Below are positions 2,658 to 50,829 of a stretch of DNA of 51,364 nucleotides, in pieces. The stretch comes from a virus. Taxonomy: Duplodnaviria; Caudoviricetes. Position 1 is the first letter of the stretch, and every line of letters begins with the position of its first letter. The DNA lies in the IMG/VR virus record IMGVR_UViG_3300030104_002039, positions 1-51,364 of that record; one strand, written 5' to 3'. The notes under the pieces are model-generated. The model did no database searches and was not told where the DNA came from. It saw only the letters and a list, made by a program, of their open reading frames with translations. The translations under genes and the position numbers were made by a program.

Positions 2658-3056
2658 ATGAAAAAACTATTTTTAATGGCAAGTCTTATTTTTGCTACAA
2701 CTTTATGTTCTGCGCAGTTCTTGGCTATAACAACCATAAACACGCCAGAAGATAATGCAGAGTGGGAAATGTCAAACGTCACCGATAACATAGGTGTTGG
2801 CTACATATTTACTGACAAAATAGTAGCTGGACTTGTAAAAAACGGTGAAGAGTACGATCTGTGGGGTAGATACCATTTTAGTAACTGCTACGCAGCTGTA
2901 CAAGCTCCTATGGAAGAAGCAACCGACAACATGATGTTCGGTGTTGGTTATTCTATGAAAGTTTGGAAAGACTTATATGTTGATCCAAGCTATATGATGT
3001 CTACGAAAGAAGACTCAGAGGGAGAGTTTAGGTTAGGAATATCTTATCGATTTTAA
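2658..3056 (+). CDS. Small outer-membrane beta-barrel protein with signal peptide
   Basis: Signal peptide MKKLFLMASLIFATTLCSA|Q, amphipathic beta-strands (NIGVGYIF, MFGVGYSM) and a C-terminal beta-signal FRLGISYRF. Confidence 0.75.
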   Translation: MKKLFLMASLIFATTLCSAQFLAITTINTPEDNAEWEMSNVTDNIGVGYIFTDKIVAGLVKNGEEYDLWGRYHFSNCYAAVQAPMEEATDNMMFGVGYSMKVWKDLYVDPSYMMSTKEDSEGEFRLGISYRF

Positions 3057-3237: not shown

Positions 3238-3693
3238 TTAAATTACCATATATTTAGTTCTACCATTTTCTTTATATGCTTTTAAACACTTTTTTCTATT
3301 TTTCTCAGGAGATACATAACTAACATGAACCCAGTTAGGATTATCATCATTTCCAAACTCCCATATCATTTGATCAAAATCTAAATGCTCTTTTATAAAG
3401 TGGTACATTTCGGCATTTGTTGCTTTGCCAAATGTATCGTCAATATCCATTGCTTGACCTTTACAGTGTTGTGAAGTAGTAGATCCACCAATAGCTTTAT
3501 TTAAATCAGCACTTCTAAAAAAACTATTAATTTTTATTGGACCACCAACATATATTCTTAATGGCTCAAATATTTCTTTAGCAAGAGTTTCCATGTTTTT
3601 TAACTGTTCTTCATTAGGTGTATTTTCTATACCTCTTCTCAAAGCCGTTGTGCTATACACGCCCTCCTTGTAACTTATGTGTTTACTTATCAT
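3238..3693 (-). CDS. Endolysin, peptidase M15A (Zn D-Ala-D-Ala peptidase) family
   Basis: NSFFRS..LNKAIGG...SQHCKGQAMD and WVHVS are the M15 zinc-binding motifs. Confidence 0.88.
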   Translation of the reverse strand: MISKHISYKEGVYSTTALRRGIENTPNEEQLKNMETLAKEIFEPLRIYVGGPIKINSFFRSADLNKAIGGSTTSQHCKGQAMDIDDTFGKATNAEMYHFIKEHLDFDQMIWEFGNDDNPNWVHVSYVSPEKNRKKCLKAYKENGRTKYMVI

Positions 3694-6190: not shown

Positions 6191-8596
6191 TTACTTTTTA
6201 ATTAATTGTTTTGTTATTGATTTGTTTTTGTAATTTATTTGTAGTATATAAACACCATTGCTAAACTTAGACATATCTAAAGTGTTTGTATTTGTTTTTG
6301 ATATAATTATATTTCCAATTTGATCATATACGTTTATATCAACATTTTTATTTATATTTACTTTGTTTTTAGTAGGATTTGGGTATATAACTAAATGATC
6401 ATCTAAACTTTGTCTTACTGGTATTGCACCAACCCAAGTGCTATCACAGTAATTATATGTTAGTTGACATATTTCATCCCACTCATTTTCACAACAGTAA
6501 TCATCTACTGAAATAACCCAAGCGTAGCATTCGTCATTAAGCCAGTAAGGATTTCCTGCACCAGTAACGCAACCAGCGTCATATAAACAAGATAAAGTAT
6601 CATTAACATTAGCAGTTGACTCGTAGTTATACGCATTTGGATCCATGCAACCCATAACCACTTCGATGCACGAACCGTTATCCGTGTTAGCAAGTGGATC
6701 AAAGTTAAGAGCTGTACTATCCATACACCCATAAACATAAGAAATACAACTAAAGTCCTCCGTGTTTGCTTGTGAGTTATAGTTAAGCATAGAAGGATCC
6801 GTGCAGCCATATATGTAAGGTATACAAGAATTATTATCACTATTTGCTAAGGGGTTATAATTAAACATGGTTGAATCAGTACATCCAAAAACGTAAGGCA
6901 AACATGATTCATCATCAGTATTAGCTGATGCATCAAAGTTAAACATTGTAGGGTCAGTACACCCATATATAAATGGAACACAACTATTATCATCAACATT
7001 TGCATTAGGATTATAGTTAAAAGCAAGTGGCTGCATACAACCATATATAACACCTATACAACCACCATTGTCTAAATTAGCTAAACTATCGTAATTAAAA
7101 GCTAGACTATCAGTACAACCCCATATAGCTTCCATTTGACAATCACCATTATTATAATCAGCTGTAAAACCTTGAGTGTAATATTCTAAATATTGTGGAT
7201 CAGCACAACCTGGATTATAATAGCAACTACCGTTATCAGTGTTTGCTGTATCGTTATAATTATAAGCTATAGAATCCATACAGCCATAAACGTAAGGAGT
7301 ACATACTGTAGGACAGTTAGGTAGCGCTATATATTTATCTGGAAACAACATTATTCTATCACTCCAAGGATTTGTGCCTCCTGAAGCTATAACAATACCT
7401 TCTGGATTTATTAATTTAAAACCTATTTGATCTATAGTAGCATCAGAACTTGTTTGTGAATAAGCTCTAATTGTAACTGGGTGGTTTGATTTTAATTCTA
7501 AATTTATAATTTCAACAAAAGAACTTGTGTTAGTATAAGGACCGTAAGAATTACCTAGTTGATTTATCATAACATAAGCGCCTAACCAACCATCACCACC
7601 ACCATCTATTAACTCAATAGTATAACTACAAGTATCCTCCATAAGTGGAGTGTTAGCAATAGAATTAAAATCAAACATAGTACTATCCATGCAACCTATC
7701 ACTCTAGGTGTAACACATAGAGCTGGGTTCATTTGGTCAGCAGCTGGATTAAACTCTAAATAAGCTGGGTTAGGACAACCAACAACAGGTATCCAACTAC
7801 AATCTTTCATCACAAACAAATCTGAAGTATCGCTATGTCCAAAATTTAAATTATCACCAGGCGTTAAACTATATATAGTATCACCGCACTCATCTGTAAT
7901 CAAAGCATTACCATCAATACCACCAAAACAAGAGCCACATATACCATCTCCATAAGAATCATATATAATAAATTTTATTGTATCGCCTATAGGTACACAT
8001 ATCGTATTGCTATAAAAGTTACCAGGGCCAATGCTATTAAAAAACCCTTGAGGTATATCATGTAAAACACTATCGTTTTGATTTACAATTTTCATAGAGG
8101 TTTCTCCAGAATAAGTATCTGGCGTAAACTCAATTGTTATAGATGTTTTTGTAGTATCAGCACAATCATCTTGTGGCGGTGGTATAGCTAAACAAACATC
8201 CGGTATGTTAGCTAAAGGATCGTAGTTGTCATAAGAAGGATCCATACAGCCTGAAATACAAGTAAATTCATTAGCATAAACTGTGTCAGTAAAACTTCCA
8301 TCACTCATTTCTAAAACTATCCAAAAACCAGCTGAACTAGCAAACGGATCACCAGGACTATAGTTGTTATAAAAAGAATAATTAGTTAAATTTTGGTCAT
8401 ACCAGTTCCAAGAGTACGTGTTATAAGGTGTTCCTCTATGAATATTATTTATTGTACAACCACTGTCTAAAGGTTGCCACTCTACCCATGTTCTAGCATA
8501 ACCATACATACATGTATCAGTAGATACTAATGTGGGCGCACAGTTTTGTGCAAAACTAAATATTGGTAATAATAATAATAATAATAATTTTTTCAT
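6191..8596 (-). CDS. Secreted Cys-rich repeat protein with a T9SS type A C-terminal sorting domain
   Basis: Signal peptide MKKLLLLLLLPIFSFA|Q; about 12 GC[MT]DxxAxN[YF]xxxAN repeats; C-terminus IYPNPT...VYDQIG...SNGVYILQI...TKQLIKK is a canonical Por/T9SS CTD. Confidence 0.88.
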   Translation of the reverse strand: MKKLLLLLLLPIFSFAQNCAPTLVSTDTCMYGYARTWVEWQPLDSGCTINNIHRGTPYNTYSWNWYDQNLTNYSFYNNYSPGDPFASSAGFWIVLEMSDGSFTDTVYANEFTCISGCMDPSYDNYDPLANIPDVCLAIPPPQDDCADTTKTSITIEFTPDTYSGETSMKIVNQNDSVLHDIPQGFFNSIGPGNFYSNTICVPIGDTIKFIIYDSYGDGICGSCFGGIDGNALITDECGDTIYSLTPGDNLNFGHSDTSDLFVMKDCSWIPVVGCPNPAYLEFNPAADQMNPALCVTPRVIGCMDSTMFDFNSIANTPLMEDTCSYTIELIDGGGDGWLGAYVMINQLGNSYGPYTNTSSFVEIINLELKSNHPVTIRAYSQTSSDATIDQIGFKLINPEGIVIASGGTNPWSDRIMLFPDKYIALPNCPTVCTPYVYGCMDSIAYNYNDTANTDNGSCYYNPGCADPQYLEYYTQGFTADYNNGDCQMEAIWGCTDSLAFNYDSLANLDNGGCIGVIYGCMQPLAFNYNPNANVDDNSCVPFIYGCTDPTMFNFDASANTDDESCLPYVFGCTDSTMFNYNPLANSDNNSCIPYIYGCTDPSMLNYNSQANTEDFSCISYVYGCMDSTALNFDPLANTDNGSCIEVVMGCMDPNAYNYESTANVNDTLSCLYDAGCVTGAGNPYWLNDECYAWVISVDDYCCENEWDEICQLTYNYCDSTWVGAIPVRQSLDDHLVIYPNPTKNKVNINKNVDINVYDQIGNIIISKTNTNTLDMSKFSNGVYILQINYKNKSITKQLIKK
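6590..7290 (-). repeat. Tandem array of about nine ~26-aa GC[MT]D...AN...C repeats in the T9SS cargo gene
   Basis: GCMDSIAYNY, GCADPQYLEY, GCTDSLAFNY, GCMQPLAFNY, GCTDPTMFNF, GCTDSTMFNY, GCTDPSMLNY, GCMDSTALNF, GCMDPNAYNY. Confidence 0.85.
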
Positions 8597-8745
8597 ATTT
8601 CAAATCCAAAGTTTAATATGATACATCTATGATCTATACCGGGGTTGCAGTACAACTCTAATATTGTAAACCTACCAATTCTAATAGATATATCATATAC
8701 ATTATCTTTTTTATTTCCTTTTTTCCAACTGTTTATCCAATTCAT
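8593..8745 (-). CDS. Unannotated 50-aa protein (MNWINSWKKGNKKDNVYDISIRIGRFTILELYCNPGIDHRCIILNFGFEI)
   Basis: Fills the gap exactly: starts just after the nuclease stop, and its TGA overlaps the next ATG (ATGA coupling). Confidence 0.75.
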   Translation of the reverse strand: MNWINSWKKGNKKDNVYDISIRIGRFTILELYCNPGIDHRCIILNFGFEI

Positions 8746-8747
8746 AA

Positions 8748-9116
8748 TTATCTTTTTCCGCCGTGATATTCTACGGCATGTCCTTCTTTAATTAATAATT
8801 CATTTATGCTTTCTAAAGTCATTTTTTCTTTACCGTCAACTATATCTACAAATAACTCCCCTAAACATCTACCATATTTTCCAACACCATGAGATTGTAA
8901 TGTTATTTCTTTTGATCCTTCTAGTAATTGCTTAACTCTATCTTTAGCTGCTAAACCTTTAGCTTTTTCTTCTAAGTCTCTTGTTCTTGATTCTGGAGTA
9001 TTAATACCTAAAAACCTTATTCTTTTTTTAGTAGATATATCAAAGCCTAAATCTATATGAGCATCAATAGTGTCACCATCAATAACTCTGTCTAATTTTA
9101 TTTTATAAGTATACAT
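8748..9116 (-). CDS. Thermonuclease (staphylococcal nuclease-like) family protein
   Basis: RVIDGDTID...RIRFLGINTPE...GKYGRCLG. The start is most likely 9116 (TAATG overlap), not 9131. Confidence 0.9.
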   Translation of the reverse strand: MYTYKIKLDRVIDGDTIDAHIDLGFDISTKKRIRFLGINTPESRTRDLEEKAKGLAAKDRVKQLLEGSKEITLQSHGVGKYGRCLGELFVDIVDGKEKMTLESINELLIKEGHAVEYHGGKR

Positions 9117-9319
9117 TATTTTGGTATGCAATTAGGAACTGTTCTTCCGTTTTTCTTTTTATAACCAGCTTGCTTATGCGTTTTCCAACATTTCATTGGT
9201 GACTTCATTTTAAATGGGCCTAATTTTCCTAACATAGATTTAACTGTTTTAGCTTGTCCAGCGTGCATTTTACTAGCTTTTTCTAATTCTTCAGCTACTT
9301 TTTTTAATTTATTTTTCAC
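9116..9319 (-). CDS. Small basic protein with a CWK...VPNC[IV]P motif
   Basis: CWKTHKQAGYKKKNGRTVPNCIPK is a motif recurrent in marine phage small proteins; the ORF overlaps both neighbours. Confidence 0.7.
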   Translation of the reverse strand: MKNKLKKVAEELEKASKMHAGQAKTVKSMLGKLGPFKMKSPMKCWKTHKQAGYKKKNGRTVPNCIPK

Positions 9320-9593
9320 CGCATTTCTTTTTAGGATTATTAACTTGTCTCCAGTCTTCTTTTTGAAACCAATCTCTTAATGTAGCACCTTTTTTACGAG
9401 CGCTTTTTACGTTTGTTTTTGAAGAACGTTTATACTTACCAGCTTTGCCAGATTTTTGTTTAGCACTAACTAAACGTTGCTTTTCTTTTTTACTCATGCT
9501 GGCAATTTTAGCGGCAGGCAAACATGTTTTACGTGTGCCTCCGCCTTTTTGCTTTTTCTTTTTTTTTAAAGGATTGTTCTCCTGAACGTACAT
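9309..9593 (-). CDS. Small basic protein (LRDWFQKEDW motif; DUF5872-like)
   Basis: Lys-rich, with CLPAAK...MSKKEK and TLRDWFQKEDW...KCG. Family name is from recall and unverified. Confidence 0.65.
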   Translation of the reverse strand: MYVQENNPLKKKKKQKGGGTRKTCLPAAKIASMSKKEKQRLVSAKQKSGKAGKYKRSSKTNVKSARKKGATLRDWFQKEDWRQVNNPKKKCGEK

Positions 9594-9595
9594 TA

Positions 9596-9862
9596 CTACT
9601 TCTTTTTCATTTTCATTTTCATAGCTGTAGCTTTTTTCATCATTACGGCTGACTTTTTAAGCATCATAGCTGATTCTTTTTTTAACTTCATTGCAGCTTT
9701 TTTCATTTTAGCCGGAGAATCTAGTATTTTCTTTTTTAAAGCGTCAGGTAAGTTTTTTTGTTTACCAACTAATGCTTTTTTCATTGGAGCTTTTTTCATT
9801 TTAGCAGGAGCTTTTTTCATTTTCATTGCTGCTTTTTTCATTTTTGCGGGTGCTTTTTTCAT
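9596..9862 (-). CDS. Lys/Met/Ala low-complexity, histone H1-like basic protein
   Basis: Repeats MKKAPAK / MKKAAMK; the DNA shows repeated GCTTTTTTCAT units. Confidence 0.75.
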   Translation of the reverse strand: MKKAPAKMKKAAMKMKKAPAKMKKAPMKKALVGKQKNLPDALKKKILDSPAKMKKAAMKLKKESAMMLKKSAVMMKKATAMKMKMKKK

Positions 9863-9863
9863 T

Positions 9864-10391
9864 TTAAATTTTGTTTTTAATATGTTTATACATTTGTTTT
9901 CCTAATTCTGTTCCGTTTTTACTATCGCTTTTATAATGAGCATGTGCTACATTTCTACTGTCAGATATATTTTTAGCTGTTTGCATAAACGCAGAGCTCT
10001 TGCCGTACTTATCTTTTAATACCGATGCTATAAGTATACCTTGTGCAGAATGACCAGATGGATATGACGGAGTGTTCATTGAATCCATTTTAACTGAGCT
10101 TAAGTTTTTATCTAGCTCATACGGTCTTGGTCTATTATGGTATTTCTTTAGTTTTAATATTACAGGTGCAGACTCTTTTATAAGTTTAGAAGCAATATTT
10201 TTGTCATAATCTTTTATACCTTGCTCTTTAGCTGTTTTTTTAAACGCAGCTTCTATATTGTCGTATTTCTTAACAAAACTTTTATTTAGTTTTATTTTTT
10301 TTAAAGTTTTAATTTCTTGAGCAGTGTCAAAGCCACTATCACTAGGTGGTTTCATTTTCTTGAAACTTGATATATCAAAATCTTTAAACAT
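9864..10391 (-). CDS. PAP2 superfamily phosphatase (soluble)
   Basis: All three PAP2 motifs: KKYHNRPRP, PSYPSGHS, SRNVAHAHYKSD; no TM segments. Confidence 0.88.
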   Translation of the reverse strand: MFKDFDISSFKKMKPPSDSGFDTAQEIKTLKKIKLNKSFVKKYDNIEAAFKKTAKEQGIKDYDKNIASKLIKESAPVILKLKKYHNRPRPYELDKNLSSVKMDSMNTPSYPSGHSAQGILIASVLKDKYGKSSAFMQTAKNISDSRNVAHAHYKSDSKNGTELGKQMYKHIKNKI

Positions 10392-10612
10392 TATTTCTTT
10401 TTAAAATCACCTCTAGTACAACGTACGCCCCAGCCAGAAGCATAAGCACTAGGCCATACTTTAAATTTCTTTTTTGCTTGAGCTTTACAACTAGCAGATA
10501 TTTTAGCTAATGCTGGACTTATTTTTTTAAGCATCTTATTTGGATTACCTTTACCTCCATCAGCTTTACTAGCATGTACAGCTTTTCTTTGTGCATCACT
10601 TACGTATCCCAT
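10391..10612 (-). CDS. Small basic protein (YVSDAQRKAVHA and KKKFKVWPSAYASG motifs)
   Basis: Lys-rich, with two short motifs recurrent in marine phages; TAATG overlap with the PAP2 gene. Confidence 0.7.
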   Translation of the reverse strand: MGYVSDAQRKAVHASKADGGKGNPNKMLKKISPALAKISASCKAQAKKKFKVWPSAYASGWGVRCTRGDFKKK

Positions 10613-10623
10613 AATTATTTATT

Positions 10624-10998
10624 TTAACATTTCCAGCGTCTACGCGCTGCTTTACCTCTTTCTCCAGTCCAACCTTTTGATCTAGCACAGAAAGACTTTC
10701 TTCTTTTTGCGGCTTTACTACCTGGTTTAACTTTTCCCGTTACAGCTGTTTTAAGCTTACTTCCAGGGTTTTTACGTCTATAAGTTTCAACTCCCTTAGA
10801 AGTCATCCCAGCACCCTCTTCTACTGTTCTAAAGTTACGACCTTTTCCTTTTGTAGTTTTTCTAGGTTCATTGCTTTTTTGTAATGGTGAACCATCATTT
10901 CTTCTTCGGCCACAACTAGTAACAGCAAAAGGGTTACCTTCTTGAACGTATCCTTTAGTTTTTTTAAACATACTGTTTTGTTTTTTGCTTCCAGGCAT
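10624..10998 (-). CDS. Small basic protein (DUF6321-like)
   Basis: GMTSKGVETYRRKNPGSKLKTAVTG...RRKSFCARS...RRRWKC. Family name is from recall and unverified. Confidence 0.7.
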   Translation of the reverse strand: MPGSKKQNSMFKKTKGYVQEGNPFAVTSCGRRRNDGSPLQKSNEPRKTTKGKGRNFRTVEEGAGMTSKGVETYRRKNPGSKLKTAVTGKVKPGSKAAKRRKSFCARSKGWTGERGKAARRRWKC

Positions 10999-11000
10999 AA

Positions 11001-11336
11001 TTAAAAGTCACTCATTAGTTGATTACTTATTTCTTCTTGCACTTCTTCTTTTGTTGCTGCCATTTTAAAACTAAGATCAGCTTGAAACCTAGCAACCTCT
11101 TCTCCATCTTTAAATATTATAATAGTAGGTACTACAGCTATTTTATGTTTACTTGCGCTAGCAGCATCTGAAGCTATATCCGTGTAGCCTATAGTTTTAC
11201 AATCTTTTAAGCTCATCACCCAATTAACATCATTAGCTTTATTCCAACCAGCGTTAAATTGTACTACTTTTATTTGGCCAAAAGTAATATTAGCTAGCAA
11301 TGTAAATAATACCCAAGTAACGTAAAATTTTTTCAT
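11001..11336 (-). CDS. Exported thioredoxin-fold protein lacking CxxC
   Basis: Signal peptide ending TFG|Q; VVQFNAGWN stands where FxAxWCxxC is expected; cis-Pro motif VVPTIIIFKDGEEVARF. Confidence 0.8.
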   Translation of the reverse strand: MKKFYVTWVLFTLLANITFGQIKVVQFNAGWNKANDVNWVMSLKDCKTIGYTDIASDAASASKHKIAVVPTIIIFKDGEEVARFQADLSFKMAATKEEVQEEISNQLMSDF

Positions 11337-11340
11337 TTAA

Positions 11341-11652
11341 TTATCTATTATATAATTTGTCTTCTATTTTTTCTAATGTTTTTTTTATTTCAGTAACATC
11401 TTCTTGTGTGGTCATAATAGTGTTACGTATCATTTCATCTTTCATTTGAAACTCCATACGTGTAACTTCATCTGGTGGTAGTTTTTCTATCCACTCAGGG
11501 TTCCACTCGTTAGCAGGTAGTTCTTTTGCTTCAGCTATATCTGACTGTAATGTAAACCACATACCAGCTAATGTAGCTATAGCAAAACCTATACCTATTA
11601 ATGTTTTTATACTTAATTTAAAGCTAGTATCTTCGTTTAATTCTTTTGCCAT
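11341..11652 (-). CDS. Single-pass membrane protein with a C-terminal coiled coil
   Basis: TM segment IKTLIGIGFAIATLAGMWF; heptad pattern in VTEIKKTLEKIEDKL. Confidence 0.75.
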   Translation of the reverse strand: MAKELNEDTSFKLSIKTLIGIGFAIATLAGMWFTLQSDIAEAKELPANEWNPEWIEKLPPDEVTRMEFQMKDEMIRNTIMTTQEDVTEIKKTLEKIEDKLYNR

Positions 11653-11653
11653 A

Positions 11654-12754
11654 TTAAAAAATTGTGTAATTTAATCCTAATTTAAAATCGTACCACTCTC
11701 TATTCCAGTACTTATTATATTTACCTTCTACAAAATAACCTAGCTGTTTGTTTACTTTTATGCCGTATATTAAACCACCTGAATAATCATACCATTGCCC
11801 ATCAACGTAGTTGTGATATGAAAACTCACTACCATCATCATAGTGATATGGCATTAAACTACCCCAAGCATGTAACCATGTGTTTTTAGAATATTTATAA
11901 TAATCAAAACCAACAACTAAAGAATGTTGTATTGTTTTCTTTAATTCATTTCTTTTTTTTTGTGTGTAATCCGATAACACTTCTGGAACAACTACAGCCT
12001 CCCAAACCTCGGCACTAGTAGCAACTAGTTCTCCAGCTGGATTGTAATACTCGCTGCTATACACATCTACCGTGTAACCTTCTTGTAATGCTAAATAAGT
12101 ATAGTGAATATTACCGTTGTCAAGCATCCACTCATCTAAAGCATTGTAACCATATGGTTCTGCAAGTCTATGTGTTAAGCCAATATTCCAAGACAAGTTA
12201 GCGTTTTTACGATGTCTATATCTTTCTGATGCTTCAAAATATTTAATATCAGCAAAACCATCTTCAAGATACTCTAGTTTTAAAGCAAAAAAGTTTACAC
12301 ATAACTCATCAGGACAACCATCATCGGAGCTAAACCTAACAAAATGATGTTGATCCATATAATCAACACCTTCTTGTCTTTTGTAATCAACTTCAAATAA
12401 ATATTCAACTCCTCTAACTTTACCTACAGTGGCCGCATCACTATAGTTAGACTCCGTTCCGTCATAAAAAGTTTGAGCTTTATTTTCATATCCAAATCTT
12501 GCTATCTTACGTAAACCTATGGTAAAATTATAATCATAAGGAGTTGAAACAGTTTGTGTAGATAAACCATTGTCTACTGAAAATACATCAACGTCAGACA
12601 ATGATGTACCGCCATTAACGGCTGCATAAAAAGTAGAATACTTTAACATATCTTTAAAGTCTTCTATGCCAAGCTTTTGAGCGCAACATTTTTTAGACGT
12701 TGTACACGCTATTAAAACTGTTGTTAATATTATTATTATTAGTTTTTTCACCAT
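11654..12754 (-). CDS. Predicted outer-membrane beta-barrel protein
   Basis: N-terminal signal (LIAC lipobox-like, or CCA|Q), many amphipathic strands, C-terminal FKLGLNYTIF beta-signal. Confidence 0.75.
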   Translation of the reverse strand: MVKKLIIIILTTVLIACTTSKKCCAQKLGIEDFKDMLKYSTFYAAVNGGTSLSDVDVFSVDNGLSTQTVSTPYDYNFTIGLRKIARFGYENKAQTFYDGTESNYSDAATVGKVRGVEYLFEVDYKRQEGVDYMDQHHFVRFSSDDGCPDELCVNFFALKLEYLEDGFADIKYFEASERYRHRKNANLSWNIGLTHRLAEPYGYNALDEWMLDNGNIHYTYLALQEGYTVDVYSSEYYNPAGELVATSAEVWEAVVVPEVLSDYTQKKRNELKKTIQHSLVVGFDYYKYSKNTWLHAWGSLMPYHYDDGSEFSYHNYVDGQWYDYSGGLIYGIKVNKQLGYFVEGKYNKYWNREWYDFKLGLNYTIF

Positions 12755-12787: not shown

Positions 12788-15700
12788 CTATCTTTGTATA
12801 ATAACTCTCTTTTTTTTGCTATCCTTTTTAGATTGTTTTTCTTTGTCTTTTTTCTTGTTTTCTTTTTCTTGCTCTTTTAATTTCTTTTTTCTTCTTTTTA
12901 TTTCTTCTTTTGTTTGAAGTAAATCTTGATCTTTAATGCCAAGATCCCAAGTATTCCAACCTAAAAGTAAAGCTATTCTCTGCCAAGTTTCATTATTAGA
13001 ATCCAAAACATTATCTATGTTTAACATTTTGTTAGATATTCTACCAAGAGGCAAATTAGTAACACCTTCTACAACGTTTCCAATAGCGCTCCAAGTTGGG
13101 TTATCTAAAGTAAAACCTCTTTCTTTCATTACTTCTCTATTGTATTTTTCAGTTTGTATAGATGAGTATATTTTTCTAAGCTTAGAGCCAATTGGTGGTG
13201 AAAAGCCAATAGCTTGTAGCAACGTATATGTTTGGTCAGCATTCCAACCTTTATCTCTTTGCTTTTGATATTCTCTTACAGTATTTTTTGCAGCACCAAT
13301 GGCTTTACCGCCGTAACCTATACCCGCTAACCAAGAATCAACCATTCCATTAATTATTCTTTCTTTCTTTTTGTCATACTCTTCTTCGTCTTCATCTCCA
13401 ATAACAGCAAACAAAGCAGATTGCATAGCGCCAAATATTATACTTTGAATAACGCCGTAGTATATTATTTTAGACATATGCGTTTTGTAATCACCTCTAC
13501 GATTTGTAATATCCCTAGCTGCTTTGTTCATTATTCTAGCATATTGCATTGGTGTGTTTTGAAAAGATAATATTAACCTACCAAGTGGAGAGGCTTGTTG
13601 TTGTGATATCATATCAGGCCTTGCTGATTGCTGTGATACTTCTGTAGCTTCTTGAAAATCTAAAAATGCTTTTAACTCAGCGTCTGCTTTTGACATACCT
13701 TGTTTTACATATGAATTAACTCTATTTCTATAAAAACTAGCACCACCAGAAGCAATAGCAAAACTATCCGCAATTTGCGTAGGTAAAAAACCTTTTTTAA
13801 GTAACCAACGTATTACCGCTTTACTTTGCTCATAAGCACCAACGCCTTTTACAGCTTGTGATAATTCAGCTTCATTTATACCTCTTTTGTTACCAGATCT
13901 TCTTTGTTTTAAGAAGTCAGAATTAAATAGCATTGTAAAATCAGACCAAAATTGTTTTTGATTAGCAAAAGCCATACCTGCTTTAAGTGGGTTGTTGTCG
14001 CTCCAATTAATATAGTTAGTAGCAGATATAGTTTGTAGTATTGCAGATCTCATATTAAAGAACATAATAGCACCAACAGAACCGTTAACCCAATTCATAT
14101 ACTCATTCATTATTCTACTATTACCAGTAGGTCTATTTCTACCGTTTTTCATACGATAGATTACATCTTCTAAAGCTTCTCTAAACTTACTACCGTATAT
14201 TGCCTCTATTTTATTTAAGTTTTCTTTAGAGAATATAACATCTACATTTGCTTGCCACTCTTGTAATACTTCCGCTCTACCAGTATCTACAGATTGTTCG
14301 CTTAATAAATCAGAATTAATATTTTCCACAAACCAATATTCACCAGGTTTTGTATAACCCTCTTTCTTTTTAGATATTAAACTTATAGTTTCAGCAAAAG
14401 ATTGTAATTCAGTGTCATTTTTAATAATACCATCTAAAGTTTCTATATTTTTCTTTGATAAACCTGGTATATCAAAACCTGCTTTATTCCACAAGTAAAC
14501 TCTCACGGCTTGGTCATAAGTAAAATCAGTACCAGTTATTTTCTTTTTTAATTTTTTCTTAATTTTAGGTGATTGTTTGAATAAGTTTTTTAAATCATTA
14601 GCTTTAGCTTGTCTAGAACTATTTAACTCGTCTACACCTCTAGCAAAAGGATCAACTAAAGCTTTCTTGAAAAAAGCTAAATCATTTTCACCTTCTTTAC
14701 CCTTGCCTAAAAAGTTGTATAATAATCCCATGAAATCTTGAGCAGATGCTGGTATTATAGATTTATACTTTGTTTTTCTACCGGCCAACTTAGCTTCAAC
14801 ATTGTCAAACTGTTTTTCAGAATCAATACCTGTTACTCTTTCTAATATATCATTAAAGTTTTTACTCATACCCTTGCTAAACTTAGTTTTAGCTTGCTGA
14901 ACCTTAGACTTAACGTCAAATTGTTCTAACATGTTAGCTACAGCTTGTACATTTTGTAAGGCATCATCAGCAAAATAAAAGTCATTGTAGCCCTCACCAA
15001 CTTTTTCAGCCATCCAAAGAGCTTTAGCCTCAGCGGTAGAGTTAGCTAAACCAGTAATGTTTTTTAAAGGTATGTTTAATCCATTAGCTTTTAAGAAAGT
15101 GTGTATTGCTAAAGCTGATTCTTCTGGTCTAGCTGTTAATACAAACATGTCTTTATTACCAAACTTACTTTGTAGTTTTAAAGCTTTATTAAACAACGGC
15201 GCTGTCTTACCTTTTACTACCTTTGTGAATTCAGAAAAATCAAACTCATACCCTTGTCCTAATAGGTCTTCGTAAGTTCTAGCGTATTCCTCAGCGTTCA
15301 ACTTACCTTTAGTGCCATCTGGCCTTGTAAATCTAATTCTAGACTTAGTAGTAGCTAATGTATCATCAAAATCTAAAACAGTAATTCCTTTTGTTTTGGC
15401 TTTAGGGTTACGAGATTGTTTAGTAGCCATATCCATAGTCATTCCTATTTCAGTAGAATTCAACAGTGATTTATTTATCTTGCTTACGAAAGCGTCCATA
15501 TTAGCTTTGTTAGCTAAGTTAAACGATGATTTAGTGGGAAAGTTTGTCTTAGATTTAGAGTCTATAATAGGTTCTATTCTAATTGTAGTTGCATAAGTAT
15601 TACCTTTTGTTGATCTTGGTTTGGAACCAACGTTCATTCTTGATATTAATTCAAAAGTTCCAGTTATATCACCATTTGTATCTTCACCTAACCTAGGTAT

Positions 15701-18700
15701 ACCAAGTTCGTTTGCTATTCTAACGACCATAGCGTTAACGTTAGGATTGCTACCTAACATGTAATATGCTCCAGCCTCGCCAATATTAATGAAATACTCA
15801 GGTATTGCTTTGTTAGTATAATGATACTCTAAATATGCAGCTGTAACAGATTCACTGTGAATAAACATGTTCTTATGTATCATTAAATCTTTACGTTGAC
15901 TAGCATCTACACCTTTTTTGAAATCCATACCAATAAACCTAGGATCATTCATTGTTTCTAAAATCTTTTTCTTAAGGTTGTTTTGTGCTGTTGTATTTGT
16001 TGGGTTTGGATTTGTAGTTGGTCCCTCCCATTTCCAAGTAACAGAAACCGCTCTTGCTGAATCCATTTTTATTTCAAGACCCATAGAAACACCATTGGTA
16101 GTTGTAAAATGAACATCTGGTATACCTCCCTCTCTAACGTATGGGTTTACTACTACAGTTTTTATACCCTTAACTTTAAGTTTTTTTACTGCATTCTCGG
16201 CTAGTTCAATAAAAAATTGCTCGTATATAGTACTAACTTTTAACTTTTTTCTTCCTTTTAATTTGTTTTTAATAAATTTTACTATAGTTTTATTATCTAC
16301 TCTTTCCATACCTCTGTTAACATAAGCATCAACAGTAACGTCTACTATAAATTTACCACCATACTTGTTAGCATCTTTTTCTGACAAGTTTCTATAATAA
16401 TTAATTTTACCTTGATCGTTAAACTCATTATTGTAGTTCCATAAATCATTTAATACTTTTTGTGCACCACTAAAATCTACATAAACTTTATCACCTACTA
16501 TTTTAATAGATCTATTTTTATATGTTACCTTAATATCTTTTCTTCCTTCACTAAATTTAACATTAGGATCTCTTTGTATTGTTCTCGCTAAATTATCTAA
16601 GTCGTTTTGTAATATTTCAACATTGTTTAGTTCAGCTATCTCTTGTCGTTTTTGAACCACGTCAGGTTCTTGAGCTACTTGTAAAATAGCATCGTATGCC
16701 AAAGCACCAGCTATATTTCTAGCTAAAGTATCTTTTCTAGTTCCACGCTTACCAGATCTTTGACCTGTAACAGGGTTAAACGATGGTATATCAAAATAAG
16801 ATAAAAACTCTGCTTCAGTAGGTATTCTTTTTGTATATAAATTCACAGCTTGGCCTTTACCTATTGTAACTAAAGCGCTTTCAGGTAATAAGTTTTGATT
16901 TACTGCTGCTTCAACATCTTCTATGTTTGTAAGTTTTTTAACAAACTTAGTAAATATTTTTTGATCATCTGGTACGTTTCTTTCTAATTGAACTAAATCA
17001 GAAACAAATAAAGAATTCATTATAGGTACTCTAAACTTTTTTAAATTACTAGTATATTGTTTAGTACCTAATAAGTTTTTAATCTCTTTAAATATATAAC
17101 TATTAGCCTGATCTCTTAGTTTTCTTTGTATGTTTCTTGCTGATGTGCCAGTTTCATATGCTTTTAATAAAGCTTGACGTGCTGCATCTAAAACTTTATT
17201 ATACATTTGATCTCCAGTTTCGATACCAAGTTCTTTTCTAAAATCAGACTCTCTTTGAACTTTGTCTTGCTCTTTTTGAGCTTTTTCTCTAGCTCTTGCA
17301 GCAGGAGATATATCTTTCTCTTCAAACTCTTTCATTCTAGAGTCTTCTTCAGCCGCAACTTGAACTTTTACATCACCTTCTTTTGTTCTATCGTCTACGT
17401 CTTTAGCTCTTTTCTCTTGCTCTGTTTTCTTATATATTTTGTTGTAAACATCACCCGCTCTAAATGTAATTCTACCTTGTAAGTAACCAAATAAACTATC
17501 GTTTTCTTCTGGATTAAAGTTCTTTATATCTTTTGTTAATTCTGACATAACATCACTAACAAAATTAACAGGTACTTTATCCGCTTTATATTTAGCGGCT
17601 ATTAAATTATCTAAATAACCTTTTTCTTTTATTTGTTTTATAATACTGTCTACTTCTGCTTGATAAAGAAACTTACCTACACCTTTTTCTCTAAGATTAT
17701 TACCATCTTGATCTACTTTACCAAGCTTATCAATTTGATTTTTTATGTCAGCTTTTTGTTTAGATGTCATAGATCTTTTAGTAACAAAATCTTCTTCACC
17801 TGTTAAACCTTTTTTCTTTCTAGCTTTAATTCTTCTTTTAGCTAGTTTAGGTGCTTTTGTTTTTCCAGGGCTTTCTTGAAAAGACTTTAAAAAACTACCC
17901 ATATAAACAGCAGCGTCTTTATCTGTTTTTATTTTATAATCTTGAGATAAAACATTTGCCCAACTTTGAGAAAGACCTGTTATACTTTTTAAATCATCTT
18001 TTGATGCGTATCTAGTATCTCCAGCTGGAACCATTTGAAATATCTCTTGAACACTTCTAGTATATTCATCAAAAAACCGCTTAGCAAACTGTTCTTTTGT
18101 TTCTGCCCTTGCTTCTTTTTCTGTGTATTTTTTACCAGTTTTTTCGTTTATTGTTCCTTTTTTCAATATATCATTAACAACATAATCTTCTACGTATTTT
18201 GAAGAGTATTCAGGAGTTCCATCGTTATTTAATCTATAGTTTCCAATATTAGATTGTCTACGTATAGCTTCGTCGTGTATTTTTTTAAAATTATTTTTAA
18301 TATAATTATGTAGCTTTTTATTATAATCAAACAAACCAGCTTCGTCAAAAGCTTTAAAATCTAAAGCATGACTAAACTCGTGAGCTATAGCTGTTGCGGG
18401 TAAAATATTACCAGCCTCTAATTGTTTTCTAGCCGCTGTTTCACTTCTAACTATATAAGTTCCTTTAGCCCCATGATTACCTCTAATAAAAGCATTTGTA
18501 GCACCACTAGCAACACTAACAAACATATCGTTTATATTACGTTTATTTATTTCTTTTGCTTTATCTATTTCAATCTTTTTTTGTTCTTTAGATATATCTC
18601 TTGAGTTTATTTCATCTATATCTCTCTGAAGTGAATCTTCATATGCTTCTTTAATTGCTTTTTTAAGCTCTGTATTGTTTTTTGCTGACTTATAGCTAAT

Positions 18701-21700
18701 ACCATCTAAATCTTCATCTTTAAGCATATCTATAATAGCATTGTTCTGCTTAGTAGTCATAACAATTGCTTTGTCTGTTTTAGCCATTGTTAAAGCTCCT
18801 ATTTGTCTATGGATATCGTTTTCTTTTTTTATATCTCTATTTTTTCTTTTTTTACCGTCTTTTGTTTTAGCATTGTCAAATCCACCTGGGCCATATGTCA
18901 TTTCATCAACAAACTGTTCGTTTTCAGGTCTAGTTCTACTTACGGCAACCTGACTATTACCCATTAATCGTTTAAACTCATTATGAACAGCAATAGCCTG
19001 CTCTTTAGGATCAGCGTTTTTTAGATTAGGATTTTTATCTTTTAAACTATTTAACATTATATCAGCATCTTCACCATAAACATCTTTAATTATAGTCATG
19101 TAGTCTTTGCCGCTGTCTAAAATAGATTTTTTAGTTTCTAATGCAGAGTTATAATCTTTCATAAACTTTTTTCTCTTCTCTGGATTTAATCCCTCTGCAT
19201 AATCTTTTAAAAGCTTTTCCTTTTTTTTACTGTCCATAGTAGGGTCAATTCCAGCTTTTGTCAGTAGCTCTTCTTCAAGTTTTCCTGCTATAAGAAGTTG
19301 TTGAAGTTTTTTACCACTTAAACCCATTGCTTTTAGCTCAACCTCACTGTTCACATTAGTTATACTAGAGTTGATTTCACCTAATTGACTTGCTAAAAGT
19401 TTTCTTCTTGCAGGATCTTTCTCATCACGCAGTTCGGCCTTTTTTAACTTGTGTTGTTTAGTTAATTCTTTAAGATATTTTCTTATTGGAGCATTAGCTA
19501 CTTGATTAGTTACTGTAGAGTAAAAAGCACCTGTTCCGTTCATTGGTCCAGCTACTATTGCCGCATTAACAACAACTTCATCCCAATTGCTCATATCAAA
19601 GTCTTTACCAAGAAACGCGACATTACTAAGAGCTTCACCACCATATATAACATATTCCTCAAGTGACTCTAAAGTCATGCCCCCTACAGTAGTAAGAGGC
19701 ATGTTGTAAAGAAAAGCCTTAGTATTACCTCTAGTAACTCTCTCTGCTGTTCTTGCTACTAAATCTTTTCCCCCTATTTGTCTAGCATATTTAACAGATG
19801 GAAGACCACCTATATACCTAACGGCCAAACCTTCAACTATCATAGCGCTAGCTATAGAGGCAGTTTTTTGATACCACTCATAGTCATTTTCTTCTATAGC
19901 CATATCTAGCTCAAGCATTAGATCTTTATACTTTTCTTCTGGTATACCTCCTTTTTGATATGCAGCCGTTAGTTCTTCTTTCGTTTTTTTCCACTCTTCA
20001 ACGTTTTCACTAGCGTTCCATAATTGAATTCTTTTACCACCACCAGCTGGAAGAGCAAATATAGCGCCTTGAGACCACAATACTGTTTTAGCGCTAAGAT
20101 TAAGAGCTGTACCTGTCCCTGCCGTAGCTAAACTAGTAAATACCATAGCATTGTTTTCTGCAAAAGCTTGTTTTGCGTACTCCCATTTTTTACCATGCTC
20201 AATAGCTTGTTTATAAGTTAATTGTGGAAATGATTTTAAATAATCTTGCTCTTCTTGATTGTAAGCTTCTTTAGCACTTTCGCTACCAAAAAGAGCTCCT
20301 ATTTCATAAATTGATTGGCTCCAACTTTTGCCCCAAGCATAATCCTCTTTAGCTTCTGGGTCATAGCTCATATCTAATACTTGTCCTCTATTTCTAAGTA
20401 ATTCTGCTTTTTCTAGGTTTTTATCTCTTATAGTTTTGTACTCTATAAAAGCGGCTTCATATTTATCATAAAGTGTTTCGGCCTCATATTGCCATTTACC
20501 TATTTTTCCAGCGTATTCATATAAAAGTTTTTCTTTTTTAGGATCTATAGATTGTCCTACGTTTGGGTTTTTGTAACTTACTTCCCACACATTGTTAACT
20601 AATTTTAAGTCAAAATCTTCTGCAATAGCGCCGCCAAATATTTCATCTCTTTCCTTGATCTTTAAATTATAATCTTTTAAATATATCTCATTAATAGCTT
20701 TGACATTTTCTTCGTTAGCTCTATCGTTTTCTTTTAACTCCATTACATCTAAAAAATCAACTGTAGCTATTGTGTTTTGAACACTCCTATCTTCAAATTG
20801 AAGTATTTCAGACATGGCTTTTGCACCAACCTTACTCTCAATTCCGGCTTTCTTTATAGTGGCTCTTCTTTTCGTATTTAACGTTTCGTATTGCTCAGGT
20901 GTTATATTACCTTCTAAAGCATACTTAAGCATAAAATCAGTCAAATTAAGACCTTGAACAGTTTCTCCTGAAATAGTACCCACAGCTTTTCTACCGGATA
21001 TATTGTAATTTCTATCTCCTGAAAAAACATAACCCTGAGGGTCTTTACCCGCAAAACCTACGTTATAACTACCATCTCCACTAGCAGCGCCTCTAAAAAT
21101 AACTTCCCCATCTTTTTCAACTACATAATAATTATATGTATCTCCCATTATCATATTTGTGAGTTGTGCCGCATATTTACCTGGCGCTGGACGGTTTCCC
21201 TTTCTTATTGTCAACCCTATATTCTTGTATAACTCTGCTGTTTTATCTACATCTAATAACTCATTATAATCATCAATATCATTACTTTCAAATTTATTAG
21301 CTTTAAAATCAAGGGCTACAGCATGTGCTTGTGGATTTTCTACTTCTGATTTCCTGTAGTCTAATATTTTTTGAATAACTTCTTGCGCTTCTCTTGGATC
21401 ACCACCTATACCAAAAGTACCAGCTTGAAGATTTATTTTAAAATTACCTTCATTAGGAATATGAACCTGTATAGCTTCACCAAGTCCTGTTTGTTCAAAT
21501 CTAATTCCAGTTTGTTGTTCTATATTACCACCAACATCTACTCCAAATAAAGTTTGCATCCACTCGTTTTTAAAGTTTTCTTCAGTCATGTCAGCAACTT
21601 CTTTTGTATTTGTTGTTGCTCCATTAAAGTAATATTCCTTATCTTCTTTACTCATAGGGGTTTTTAAGCCATCTTGCTTTGATATCCAAGTTTTTAAATC

Positions 21701-49533: not shown

Positions 49534-49920
49534 TTATTTTTTTGTTTTTTCAAATGATCGTCCGCCAAAATAAGCACCGATCACAGTTATTAATACTAAT
49601 TGTAATAAATCTACCCATGTATCTTTAACGTCGAACTTTATAGCGCCTGCGTCTATAAATATTAATAACATTGTACATACTATTAAAAATATTAAAACCA
49701 TAGGTCTAACATTTTTACTAAGCCATGAGTCTGACTTTAAATCCGCTTGCCAACGACTAGTGATGTTTTTTTCCATTTCTATTTCGTAGTTAGCAATTAA
49801 TTCTTTTACTTTCTGCTCTGCAGCAAGTTTTTCTTCATCTGAAGTGTGTAAGTTATCTATAACACCACCTACACCCTTTACTAGTTCCGCGGCTCCACCG
49901 CTAAATAATTTACCTAACAT
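49534..49920 (-). CDS. Holin (3TM gene-transfer-release holin type)
   Basis: RWQADLKSDSWLSKNVRP followed by TM helices and C-terminal AYFGGRSFEK. Confidence 0.8.
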   Translation of the reverse strand: MLGKLFSGGAAELVKGVGGVIDNLHTSDEEKLAAEQKVKELIANYEIEMEKNITSRWQADLKSDSWLSKNVRPMVLIFLIVCTMLLIFIDAGAIKFDVKDTWVDLLQLVLITVIGAYFGGRSFEKTKK

Positions 49921-50204: not shown

Positions 50205-50420
50205 TTATTTCTTTTTTGCGAATTTCTCTAATCCACTTATACCGAAGCAACCAATCACTACAAATACAAATGAATCATATATAAATTCATTAATTACTAG
50301 GTCTTTACCAAAATAACCTGTTATTACATCCACTAACATAATCACACACATTATTGCAAATGCTAAAAATCCTATAACAGATTTTTCATTATAATCGTTA
50401 TTATCTTTAAATATCTCCAT
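50205..50420 (-). CDS. Two-TM membrane protein (holin/antiholin-like)
   Basis: Probable start MEIFKDNND at 50420; NEKSVIGF, two hydrophobic helices and a basic tail. Confidence 0.7.
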   Translation of the reverse strand: MEIFKDNNDYNEKSVIGFLAFAIMCVIMLVDVITGYFGKDLVINEFIYDSFVFVVIGCFGISGLEKFAKKK

Positions 50421-50829
50421 TGTTTGCTTCTTTTTCCCACGGAAAACCAGTGTCACCAGCCTCTTTCCACTCTCCGTCTACCATTATCATGTCTTTACCA
50501 TTTATATCACGTCTTTCAAACTTTTCACCGTTGTACGATATATAATCATCTGTATATGCTAGTTTTCCTATTCTCATATCTGTAGAGTGTCTCATCTCGT
50601 GGTTTATCACTTGCTTATCTTCACGACTGCCAGGTATTATATTTTCATTAACATATATGCTACCATCCATATTAGCCTCACCCATTATTCCTTCATCTAA
50701 AGGCACTCTAATAACAGGTGTACCAGGTACAGAACCTACATCTCCAGCTTGCTTACCAAAACGCATTTTTGTTTTGATTTCACCATTGCTAGCTTCTAAT
50801 CCTCTATTTTTACCGAGTTTAAATCCCAT
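50407..50829 (-). CDS. Zincin-like metalloprotease
   Basis: GEAN.DGSIYVN...VINHEMRH...FPWEKEAN (HExxH plus a distal Glu). Confidence 0.8.
   Translation of the reverse strand: MGFKLGKNRGLEASNGEIKTKMRFGKQAGDVGSVPGTPVIRVPLDEGIMGEANMDGSIYVNENIIPGSREDKQVINHEMRHSTDMRIGKLAYTDDYISYNGEKFERRDINGKDMIMVDGEWKEAGDTGFPWEKEANNGDI

Follow-up and report, generated by a model that had tools for sequence, protein, structure and literature searches.

The window analysed here, a stretch of 51,364 bases that is the complete IMG/VR virus record IMGVR_UViG_3300030104_002039 (94% complete, 33% G+C), contains three successive genes for proteins predicted to be exported: an outer-membrane β-barrel protein (hereafter the barrel), a small protein with one transmembrane (TM) segment, which we call TM, and a secreted thioredoxin-like protein (Trx). 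Comparing the loci of viral relatives, we found that TM and Trx form an obligate pair, to which the barrel is a frequent but dispensable companion. Because of the layout of the pair, its holin and endolysin context, the literature on spanins in Bacteroidetes and the absence of a lipobox-bearing candidate elsewhere in the genomes screened, we rank first, and put forward tentatively, the hypothesis that the trio is an envelope module associated with lysis that acts like a spanin and has no lipoprotein. We stress that the module does not belong to the spanin family, because its exported partner, Trx, lacks the lipoprotein character of an o-spanin; at most the module functions in the manner of a spanin. 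The three genes are the following.

11654..12754, minus strand: barrel gene, 366 residues; predicted secreted outer-membrane β-barrel of a virus-only family without a curated model
11341..11652, minus strand: TM gene, 103 residues; predicted N-in inner-membrane protein with one TM segment, a Pro-rich linker and a heptad ectodomain
11001..11336, minus strand: Trx gene, 111 residues; predicted secreted thioredoxin fold without CxxC, mature N-terminus predicted at Gln21

The gene order is barrel, TM, Trx, with gaps of 1 nucleotide (nt) and 4 nt, and the three open reading frames (ORFs) exist as a first-pass annotation of the window had described them. That annotation had also placed a candidate promoter before the barrel gene and regarded the trio as a unit set apart by its spacing; neither claim is supported. 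The spacer between the stop of the preceding 3187-residue ORF and the barrel start is only 33 nt, and tight packing runs on at both sides, a DUF6321 gene (10624-10998) starting 2 nt past Trx. A scan for σ70-type promoters returned 21 sites against 20.8 ± 4.0 in shuffled sequences, none of them inside the 33-nt spacer, with a tool that does not cover promoters of the Bacteroidota type. Contigs from marine RNA libraries of three studies cover parts of the region, some of them near-identical to it, and one, from a relative, spans Trx, TM and the end of the barrel gene; such contigs cannot show transcription, transcript starts or strand.

To describe the association of the three genes we used three sets of viral loci: 80 close loci found with the window barrel (76-95% identity; set A), 80 distant loci found with a barrel about 34% identical to that of the window (set B) and 79 further loci anchored on Trx, which matches more than 581 IMG/VR contigs (set C). 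TM was present in 75/80 and Trx in 72/80 loci of set A, where four of the five TM-less loci and all three loci with TM but lacking Trx run off the contig edge. In one locus (L048) a nuclease gene directly follows the barrel and there is no Trx; this contig is 20% complete and uninformative. The counts for set B are similar (TM in 75/80, Trx in 71/80). Where both genes occur they are adjacent or overlapping in 72/72 loci of set A and 71/71 of set B, with gaps of -53 to +10 nt, and TM adjoins Trx in 79/79 loci of set C. Three contigs from metagenome-assembled genomes (MAGs) carry TM and Trx; two have them adjacent, and in the third (L086) two small genes lie between them (838 nt). The barrel is less tightly placed: in set A it abuts the pair or is separated from it by one small basic gene, and in set B the two are 0.5-7.1 kb apart, with the barrel in some loci on the opposite side or strand. 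The co-occurrence of the three genes in relatives, which the earlier annotation had named as the check on its proposal, thus holds strongly for TM and Trx, which in the three sets are adjacent wherever both are seen; the barrel is mostly present (70/76 loci of set C with at least 2.5 kb of upstream sequence) but absent from six, in which a giant ORF runs directly into TM. MW202828.1 and elemoF, two relatives that share the virion module, contain no barrel, TM or Trx by profile search at E ≤ 1; as a control, the search with the Trx profile recovered the gene in 4/4 carrier records and was blank in one 20%-complete fragment.

These distributions bear on the question of whether the three genes serve a common machine. 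They might not, if the barrel and the TM-Trx pair were independent accessory genes in the variable region that separates the virion module from the replication module, an explanation that we consider rather improbable. It would account for barrel-to-pair distances that range from 0 to 7.1 kb, for pairs that lie on the other strand, for the six loci without a barrel and for a region full of shuffled small genes. The trio has nevertheless been retained together down to about 34% barrel identity and in at least eight genome architectures, and all three genes are jointly absent from the two relatives that lack them.

No match to a curated family above threshold was found for any of the three proteins, and barrel and TM gave nothing at all in Pfam, PHROGs or NCBIfam. 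Among the candidates scored, relatives of the barrel amount to 3613 clusters at 90% identity (E ≤ 1e-3) and relatives of Trx to 5161 clusters at 90% identity; at 50% identity the barrel family comprises 311 clusters. The barrel and Trx clusters come almost wholly from marine metagenomes, and the nearest ESM Atlas clusters are labelled 100% viral. A search of 50,697 deposited phage records found no DNA match, and tblastn of the window barrel, the distant barrel, TM and Trx was also blank. Matches in species genomes number five, all of them MAG contigs with the same phage genes (L082-L086). Their bins are labelled Parvibaculum, Maricaulis, Rickettsiales and Sphingobacteriales, and they also carry the giant-ORF and secretion-cargo genes described below; as they are probably phage contigs swept into bins, the labels are uninformative on the host.

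The barrel protein has an N-terminal hydrophobic leader, evident from sequence and hydropathy. Its AlphaFold2 model, built on 26 homologues (mean predicted local distance difference test score, pLDDT, 72.5), comprises about 14 strands and, at residues 205-270, a helical insert. In a structure search against 48,161 solved chains, made independently of Foldseek, outer-membrane barrels ranked top: OmpG (Z 11.4, root mean square deviation 5.7, 204 residues aligned), KdgM (Z 11.2, root mean square deviation 4.4, 160 aligned) and the autotransporter and TamA barrels (Z about 10). Foldseek agrees, with NanC, FapF and KdgM. These scores indicate the fold class and nothing more specific. The leader and the modelled fold are in line with the outer-membrane target proposed earlier for the first gene, and we predict that its product is a signal-peptide-bearing outer-membrane β-barrel. 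The best-conserved stretch of the family, at about residues 80-118 ('RKIARFxYE...FYDGTE...GxEY'), appears in the model as a long loop of low confidence; given 14 strands and both termini in the periplasm, this loop (84-114) would be periplasmic.

Searches of single sequences against family profiles gave no match to PorP_SprF or any other Pfam outer-membrane protein (OMP) family for any of 26 barrel homologues at E ≤ 0.1, and no NCBIfam OMP model matched the window barrel or P0256. An ESM Atlas cluster of cyanophage Phage_OMP proteins was discarded as a lead, its score of 0.93 lying within the chance range. The idea that the barrel is a lipoprotein was not confirmed. The leader of the window barrel contains a lipobox-like LIAC; lipidation is not a family trait, however, because most homologues, some of them at 82% identity, carry a plain leader ending in ...xQ. 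In the MAG-derived contig L082 (2915-3253), Trx itself has a lipobox leader, ending in '...STKKCCAQ', that is near-identical to the leader of the window barrel (12754-12677), which suggests that leaders may have been swapped between module genes.

Phage-encoded OMPs have precedents. One of them, lambda Lom, also provides, as do T4 Imm and Sp, an analogy for an explanation by superinfection exclusion or receptor masking. The barrel would then alter or mask the receptors of the outer membrane, and TM and Trx would block those steps of genome delivery by an incoming phage that take place in the periplasm or at the inner membrane. Many phages encode outer-membrane barrels, among them Lom, for which a block of LamB has been reported (bioRxiv 10.64898/2026.10.24.761521). 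That the module is accessory, being missing in two relatives that share the virion genes, that it moves among genome architectures and that all three proteins appear to be exported would also suit exclusion. The genes stand, however, at the end of a long same-strand string of virion and lysis genes and not among the early genes, and the repeated direct adjacency to endolysin and holin genes set out below would be unexpected; no PHROG match points to exclusion either, the PADLOC defence library not having been searched. We judge this explanation unlikely. The barrel resembles lambda Lom and the OMPs of huge phages in being a phage-encoded barrel with a signal peptide, and envelope-gene neighbours have been reported for such proteins (bioRxiv 10.64898/2026.10.24.761521). 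It differs from them in its roughly 14 strands, its 65-residue helical insert and its conserved loop 84-114, in its occurrence in phages of 30-90 kb, and in lying outside the known OMP families and being linked to TM-Trx and to lysis genes.

TM has a single hydrophobic segment at about residues 13-35, with Lys on its N-terminal side and an acidic C-terminal side. Beyond it come a Pro-rich linker and a conserved 'MEFxMKDxxxR' motif; P46, E67, K71 and R76 are invariant. From about residue 75 to 103, hydrophobic positions recur in a 3-4-3-4 spacing that is kept in 17 homologues, the heptad being read from the pattern in the alignment. The single segment, the N-in orientation and the conserved heptad pattern of the ectodomain agree with the inner-membrane, coiled-coil protein that the second gene had been predicted to encode. 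On these grounds TM appears to have the features of an i-spanin, namely an N-terminal TM segment, an N-in/C-out topology and a helical, coiled-coil-like periplasmic domain. It has no family match in Pfam, PHROGs or NCBIfam and no match in the PDB; DUF2730, which had come up as a lead in the Atlas, was rejected with a score of 0.82, within the chance range.

Trx is recognizable as a thioredoxin through its family. Searched as a single sequence, it matches PF00085 with an E value of 6.9e-4 (20.0 bits, under the 23.5-bit cut-off) and TIGR01068 with 1.2e-4, also below threshold, and a profile of 24 homologues matches solved thioredoxins at 1.4e-8. At the place of the active site the window protein carries FNAGWN. 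Of 329 unique relatives, all but one (328) replace WCGPC by WNxxN, the exception having GNxxN; the cis-Pro motif [VIL]PT is present in 328. Because a conserved Asn fills both catalytic Cys positions family-wide, the protein cannot carry out thiol-disulfide chemistry at this site. The residues that are invariant in the 24-sequence alignment (Q21, which is the first mature residue, W31, N32, N35, P70, T71 and F111) include those of the former active site, and the surface around that site is, judging from the alignment, under selection. The leader of the window Trx contains no Cys, and a canonical lipobox is found in 9/269 full-length relatives; in 268/269 a small residue ends the leader and Gln comes next, the pattern known from Bacteroidota proteins that signal peptidase I cleaves. 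Taken together, profile, leader and motif point to the redox-inactive periplasmic thioredoxin fold that the first-pass annotation had proposed.

In comparison with thioredoxin (PF00085), then, the homology at profile level, the Trp that precedes the active site and the loop with the cis-Pro have been kept. Asn in place of both Cys, a signal peptide, encoding by a phage, coupling to a small membrane protein and scores below the Pfam and NCBIfam thresholds are what sets Trx apart. Use of the thioredoxin fold independently of redox chemistry is known from the T7 polymerase-thioredoxin complex and from the b' domains of PDI. A redox-independent chaperone of the thioredoxin type has been described in T. 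brucei (PMC6783113). A single-sequence AlphaFold2 model of Trx (pLDDT 49.6) was too poor to use. Complex prediction with alignments for both the TM ectodomain (36-103) and mature Trx (22-111) gave a score of 0.00, by which binding is neither supported nor contradicted. When longer forms of Trx were sought, one 340-residue protein with AAA-type domains came up, probably a chimeric call, and no TM-Trx fusion; the latter is weak evidence.

The neighbourhood of the pair was analysed by clustering the ORFs of 166 loci and naming the clusters by family searches. Endolysin-like clusters near the pair are M15 peptidases (phrog_894), c66 (phrog_33083 endolysin, E 1.9e-15) and c13; holin-type clusters are c8 and the small two-TM proteins c12 and c63. 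In set B an endolysin-like gene directly follows Trx in 28/71 loci and lies within three genes of it in 36/71, and holin-type genes occur no more than three genes after Trx in 30/71 and no more than two genes before TM in 20/71. Direct adjacency of Trx and endolysin is seen in three genome architectures (17/21, 8/8 and 1/1 loci). Two further architectures have an endolysin-like gene no more than three genes upstream of the barrel (10/10 and 5/5), and one, with 6 loci, has none near the module. In relatives c12 often stands just before TM or just after Trx, and in distant relatives c8 is found directly behind the endolysin, near TM-Trx. The clearest case is a genome of 31.6 kb (rated 100% complete) in which a block at 6953-10324 holds barrel, c6 (see below), c63, TM, Trx, M15 endolysin and c8 holin. 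Inside this block lie all of the proteins of that genome with an N-terminal leader or anchor, as well as the two-TM holin c8; scans of the remainder found no N-terminal leader or lipobox and a few proteins with internal hydrophobic segments only. Hydropathy screens of the window phage and of the 31.6-kb phage revealed no lipobox-bearing spanin candidate. The window has its own lysis genes, as listed here.

3238..3693, minus strand: M15 peptidase endolysin (PF08291, E 6.2e-15; phrog_894 endolysin, E 6.5e-30)
49534..49920, minus strand: holin, c8 homologue (phrog_3427 holin, E 2.3e-29; found by tblastn of cluster c8; two hydrophobic segments)
50205..50456, minus strand: small two-TM holin-like protein, c12 (by hydropathy and clustering; no family match)

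These genes are dispersed: the holin and two-TM genes are found upstream of the terminase, and the M15 gene stands at the opposite end of the same-strand string. Other phages that carry the module have their lysis genes in one compact cassette.

A lysis-cassette context could also fit a pair that sets the timing of lysis, in which TM would be a single-pass, holin- or antiholin-like protein and Trx a secreted regulator that binds it, the barrel being unrelated or a sensor. In phage T4 the antiholin RI binds the holin T, and TM and Trx resemble T and RI in combining a single-pass N-in protein that has a periplasmic domain with a small secreted partner (about 90 residues in the case of Trx). We detected no homology to T or RI, however, and no sequence or profile link to holin or antiholin families in Pfam, PHROGs or NCBIfam, and the same cassettes already hold the bona fide holin c8 and the two-TM proteins c12 and c63. 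A timing pair seems to us improbable.

We return to the spanin-like reading, for which the literature is of interest. Two-component spanins consist of an i-spanin and an o-spanin, the latter an outer-membrane lipoprotein with a lipobox Cys (definitions in PMC6139136). According to a 2025 survey, only unimolecular spanins are seen in phages of Bacteroidetes (PMC12596118), and among the North Sea flavophages spanin candidates were reported in two genera only (PMC8776804), so that the outer-membrane step at lysis is unassigned in most Bacteroidota phages. About 15% of phages are reported to be without spanins, one of them using a cationic peptide instead (bioRxiv 10.1101/515445). The genes of the pair are laid out like those of an i- and an o-spanin, the first with a TM segment, the second with a secretion leader, and the two adjacent or overlapping. 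In this respect they resemble lambda Rz/Rz1 and T4 PseT.3/PseT.2, which are likewise adjacent or overlapping late genes encoding an N-in single-pass coiled-coil protein first and an exported protein second, and in relatives of the window they also have holin and endolysin neighbours. They differ in that Trx is globular, is predicted to be cleaved by signal peptidase I and is not a lipoprotein, in that the only outer-membrane candidate of the module is a β-barrel and not a lipid anchor, and in showing no sequence similarity to spanin families; the pair of the window is, moreover, located away from the lysis genes. The suggestion of a non-canonical spanin, one of several options offered in the first-pass annotation, is favoured by gene context in distant relatives, where the pair stands between holin-like genes and the endolysin, but not in the lineage of the window.

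From these observations, we envisage the following course of events. Late in infection of a marine flavobacterium, the three proteins would be exported by the Sec system of the host. The barrel, where present, would be inserted into the outer membrane as the component residing there. TM would sit in the inner membrane with its helical heptad ectodomain of about 65 residues in the periplasm, into which Trx would be freed by a signal peptidase I cut before the invariant Gln. TM and Trx would then act as one functional unit, in which the old active-site groove of Trx, with its Trp, two Asn and cis-Pro loop, most likely serves as a protein-binding surface, and this unit would act after the holin and the M15 endolysin, at the step that concerns the periplasm and outer membrane, in the manner of a two-component spanin. 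Both the binding among the parts and the role in disrupting the outer membrane are inferred. In a more specific version, the module would be a three-part, lipoprotein-free spanin: TM holds Trx as an adaptor through the WNxxN groove, Trx docks on the barrel, and the outer membrane is breached once M15 has removed the murein. We regard this version as unlikely.

Several points weigh against a spanin-like role. Some concern the proteins: the lipobox of an o-spanin is lacking in all but those few relatives of Trx (9/269), Trx has a compact globular fold, and an ectodomain of about 65 residues together with a globule of about 3 nm would seem too short to span the periplasm alone. The barrel is missing from six loci of set C, in five of which none is found contig-wide (35-46 kb, 58-79% complete). 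Others concern the context. No locus of set A (0/72) has an endolysin-like gene within three genes of Trx, and in the window the M15 endolysin lies 7.3 kb downstream of Trx, the holin and the c12-like gene being close to the opposite contig end. The cluster c13 is a DUF5675 protein with a weak Tlde1-like match and counts as endolysin-like on weak grounds. Finally, adjacency to the lysis module may be partly circumstantial, because lysis genes and module share a small, shuffled accessory region.

A further neighbour of the pair is a gene for a secreted protein with a sorting domain of the type IX secretion system (T9SS), which in the window lies 2.4 kb downstream of the trio.

6191..8596, minus strand: Cys-rich secreted protein with a T9SS type A C-terminal sorting domain (PF18962, E 2e-11; TIGR04183, E 1.5e-10)

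The association with T9SS cargo suggested by the first-pass annotation is real as a neighbourhood, since a cargo gene or c6, a second Cys-rich secreted protein, lies within a few genes of TM-Trx in 27/72 close and 45/71 distant loci; however, where the barrel has been lost, the cargo gene is still found directly behind Trx. The same data bear on the possibility that the trio is a helper set for T9SS, with Trx as a redox-inactive holdase tethered by TM and the barrel as a cargo partner resembling PorP/SprF. The distance of the cargo gene in the window, its frequency near the pair, the position of c6 directly after the barrel in most distant loci and that of the cargo gene directly before the barrel in two MAG-derived contigs would fit such a role. 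The lack of PorP_SprF or other OMP family matches among the 26 barrel homologues, the persistence of the cargo gene behind Trx without a barrel and the fact that c6 and most cargo homologues have no recognizable T9SS sorting domain argue against it, and we hold a helper set to be quite improbable.

In the window, the cargo protein has repeated Cys-containing modules ('GC[MT]D...A.N[YF]...'). Most of its homologues end in another, shorter C-terminus ('TDLLGRP...YIYSDGTVERKLIK'), to which no sorting-domain model matched; a search of five records with Por_Secre_tail gave no match and, being without a positive control, is uninformative. The cluster c6 (77 members) follows the barrel directly in most of the loci L087-L166 (e.g. 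L087:10539-11456). The leader of its members ends in Q; their N-terminal domain is Cys-rich and contains 'DGWxDCVDxSDE', and they have a long acidic region of Thr/Glu/Val/Ile repeats; by eye, the C-terminus is like the last strands of a T9SS sorting domain, and c6 has no match in Pfam, PHROGs or NCBIfam.

The window encodes a terminase, a portal and virion proteins of PHROG families, nearly all of its genes being on the minus strand. The best match of the large terminase is the uncultured freshwater podophage MW202828.1 (64%), followed by the 'elemo' phages of Flavobacterium (45%) and then by phages of Cellulophaga, Tenacibaculum and Maribacter. Judged by its genes, the phage is a marine flavobacterial podophage, and because of these terminase matches we take the host to be a member of the Flavobacteriia. 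All secreted proteins of the window have a small residue and then Gln at the predicted leader cleavage site, which fits the 'Q-rule' of Bacteroidetes, described for the signal peptidase I substrates of Bacteroidota (PMC5837995, PMC10653852).

Taken one by one, the parts of the module belong to known kinds, the barrel being a phage OMP, Trx a redox-dead thioredoxin fold and TM a protein like an i-spanin. What is new is the conserved association of the three and its connection with lysis cassettes in phages of Bacteroidota; the literature searched and the family libraries contain no account of this three-protein composition. The trio comprises three virus-only families that are very common in marine viromes and recur in the lysis cassettes of several unrelated phage types, and it offers a concrete, testable candidate for the outer-membrane step of lysis. 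Trx is in itself an unusual thioredoxin fold, with a conserved Asn at both catalytic Cys positions. If the three-part spanin were true, it would solve the last step of lysis in a new way, and in a phylum where no two-component spanins have been found; should the lysis reading be wrong, the trio would still be a widespread phage device that remodels the envelope of abundant marine bacteria.

Some neighbouring genes deserve mention. Downstream of Trx, the minus strand from 9116 to 10998 encodes a series of small, extremely basic proteins, among them an 88-residue protein of KMKK-type repeats at 9596-9862 and the DUF6321 protein. Relatives (L001, L008, L016, L018, L026, L028 and others) have variable small basic genes, whose products start with 'MAFKMKG...', between barrel and TM. 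These small basic proteins might be internal virion proteins or membrane-active peptides. The string of virion genes contains two giant ORFs, of 3187 residues (12788-22351) and 2853 residues (27895-36456), whose homologues in the elemo phages are annotated as structural proteins; in the former, an HExxH-like 'HEFSH' and a HAD-like 'DFDDT' motif can be seen by eye. On the plus strand, at 2658-3056, a secreted protein of 132 residues with a leader ending in '...TTLCSAQ' adjoins the gene of a class II ribonucleotide reductase.

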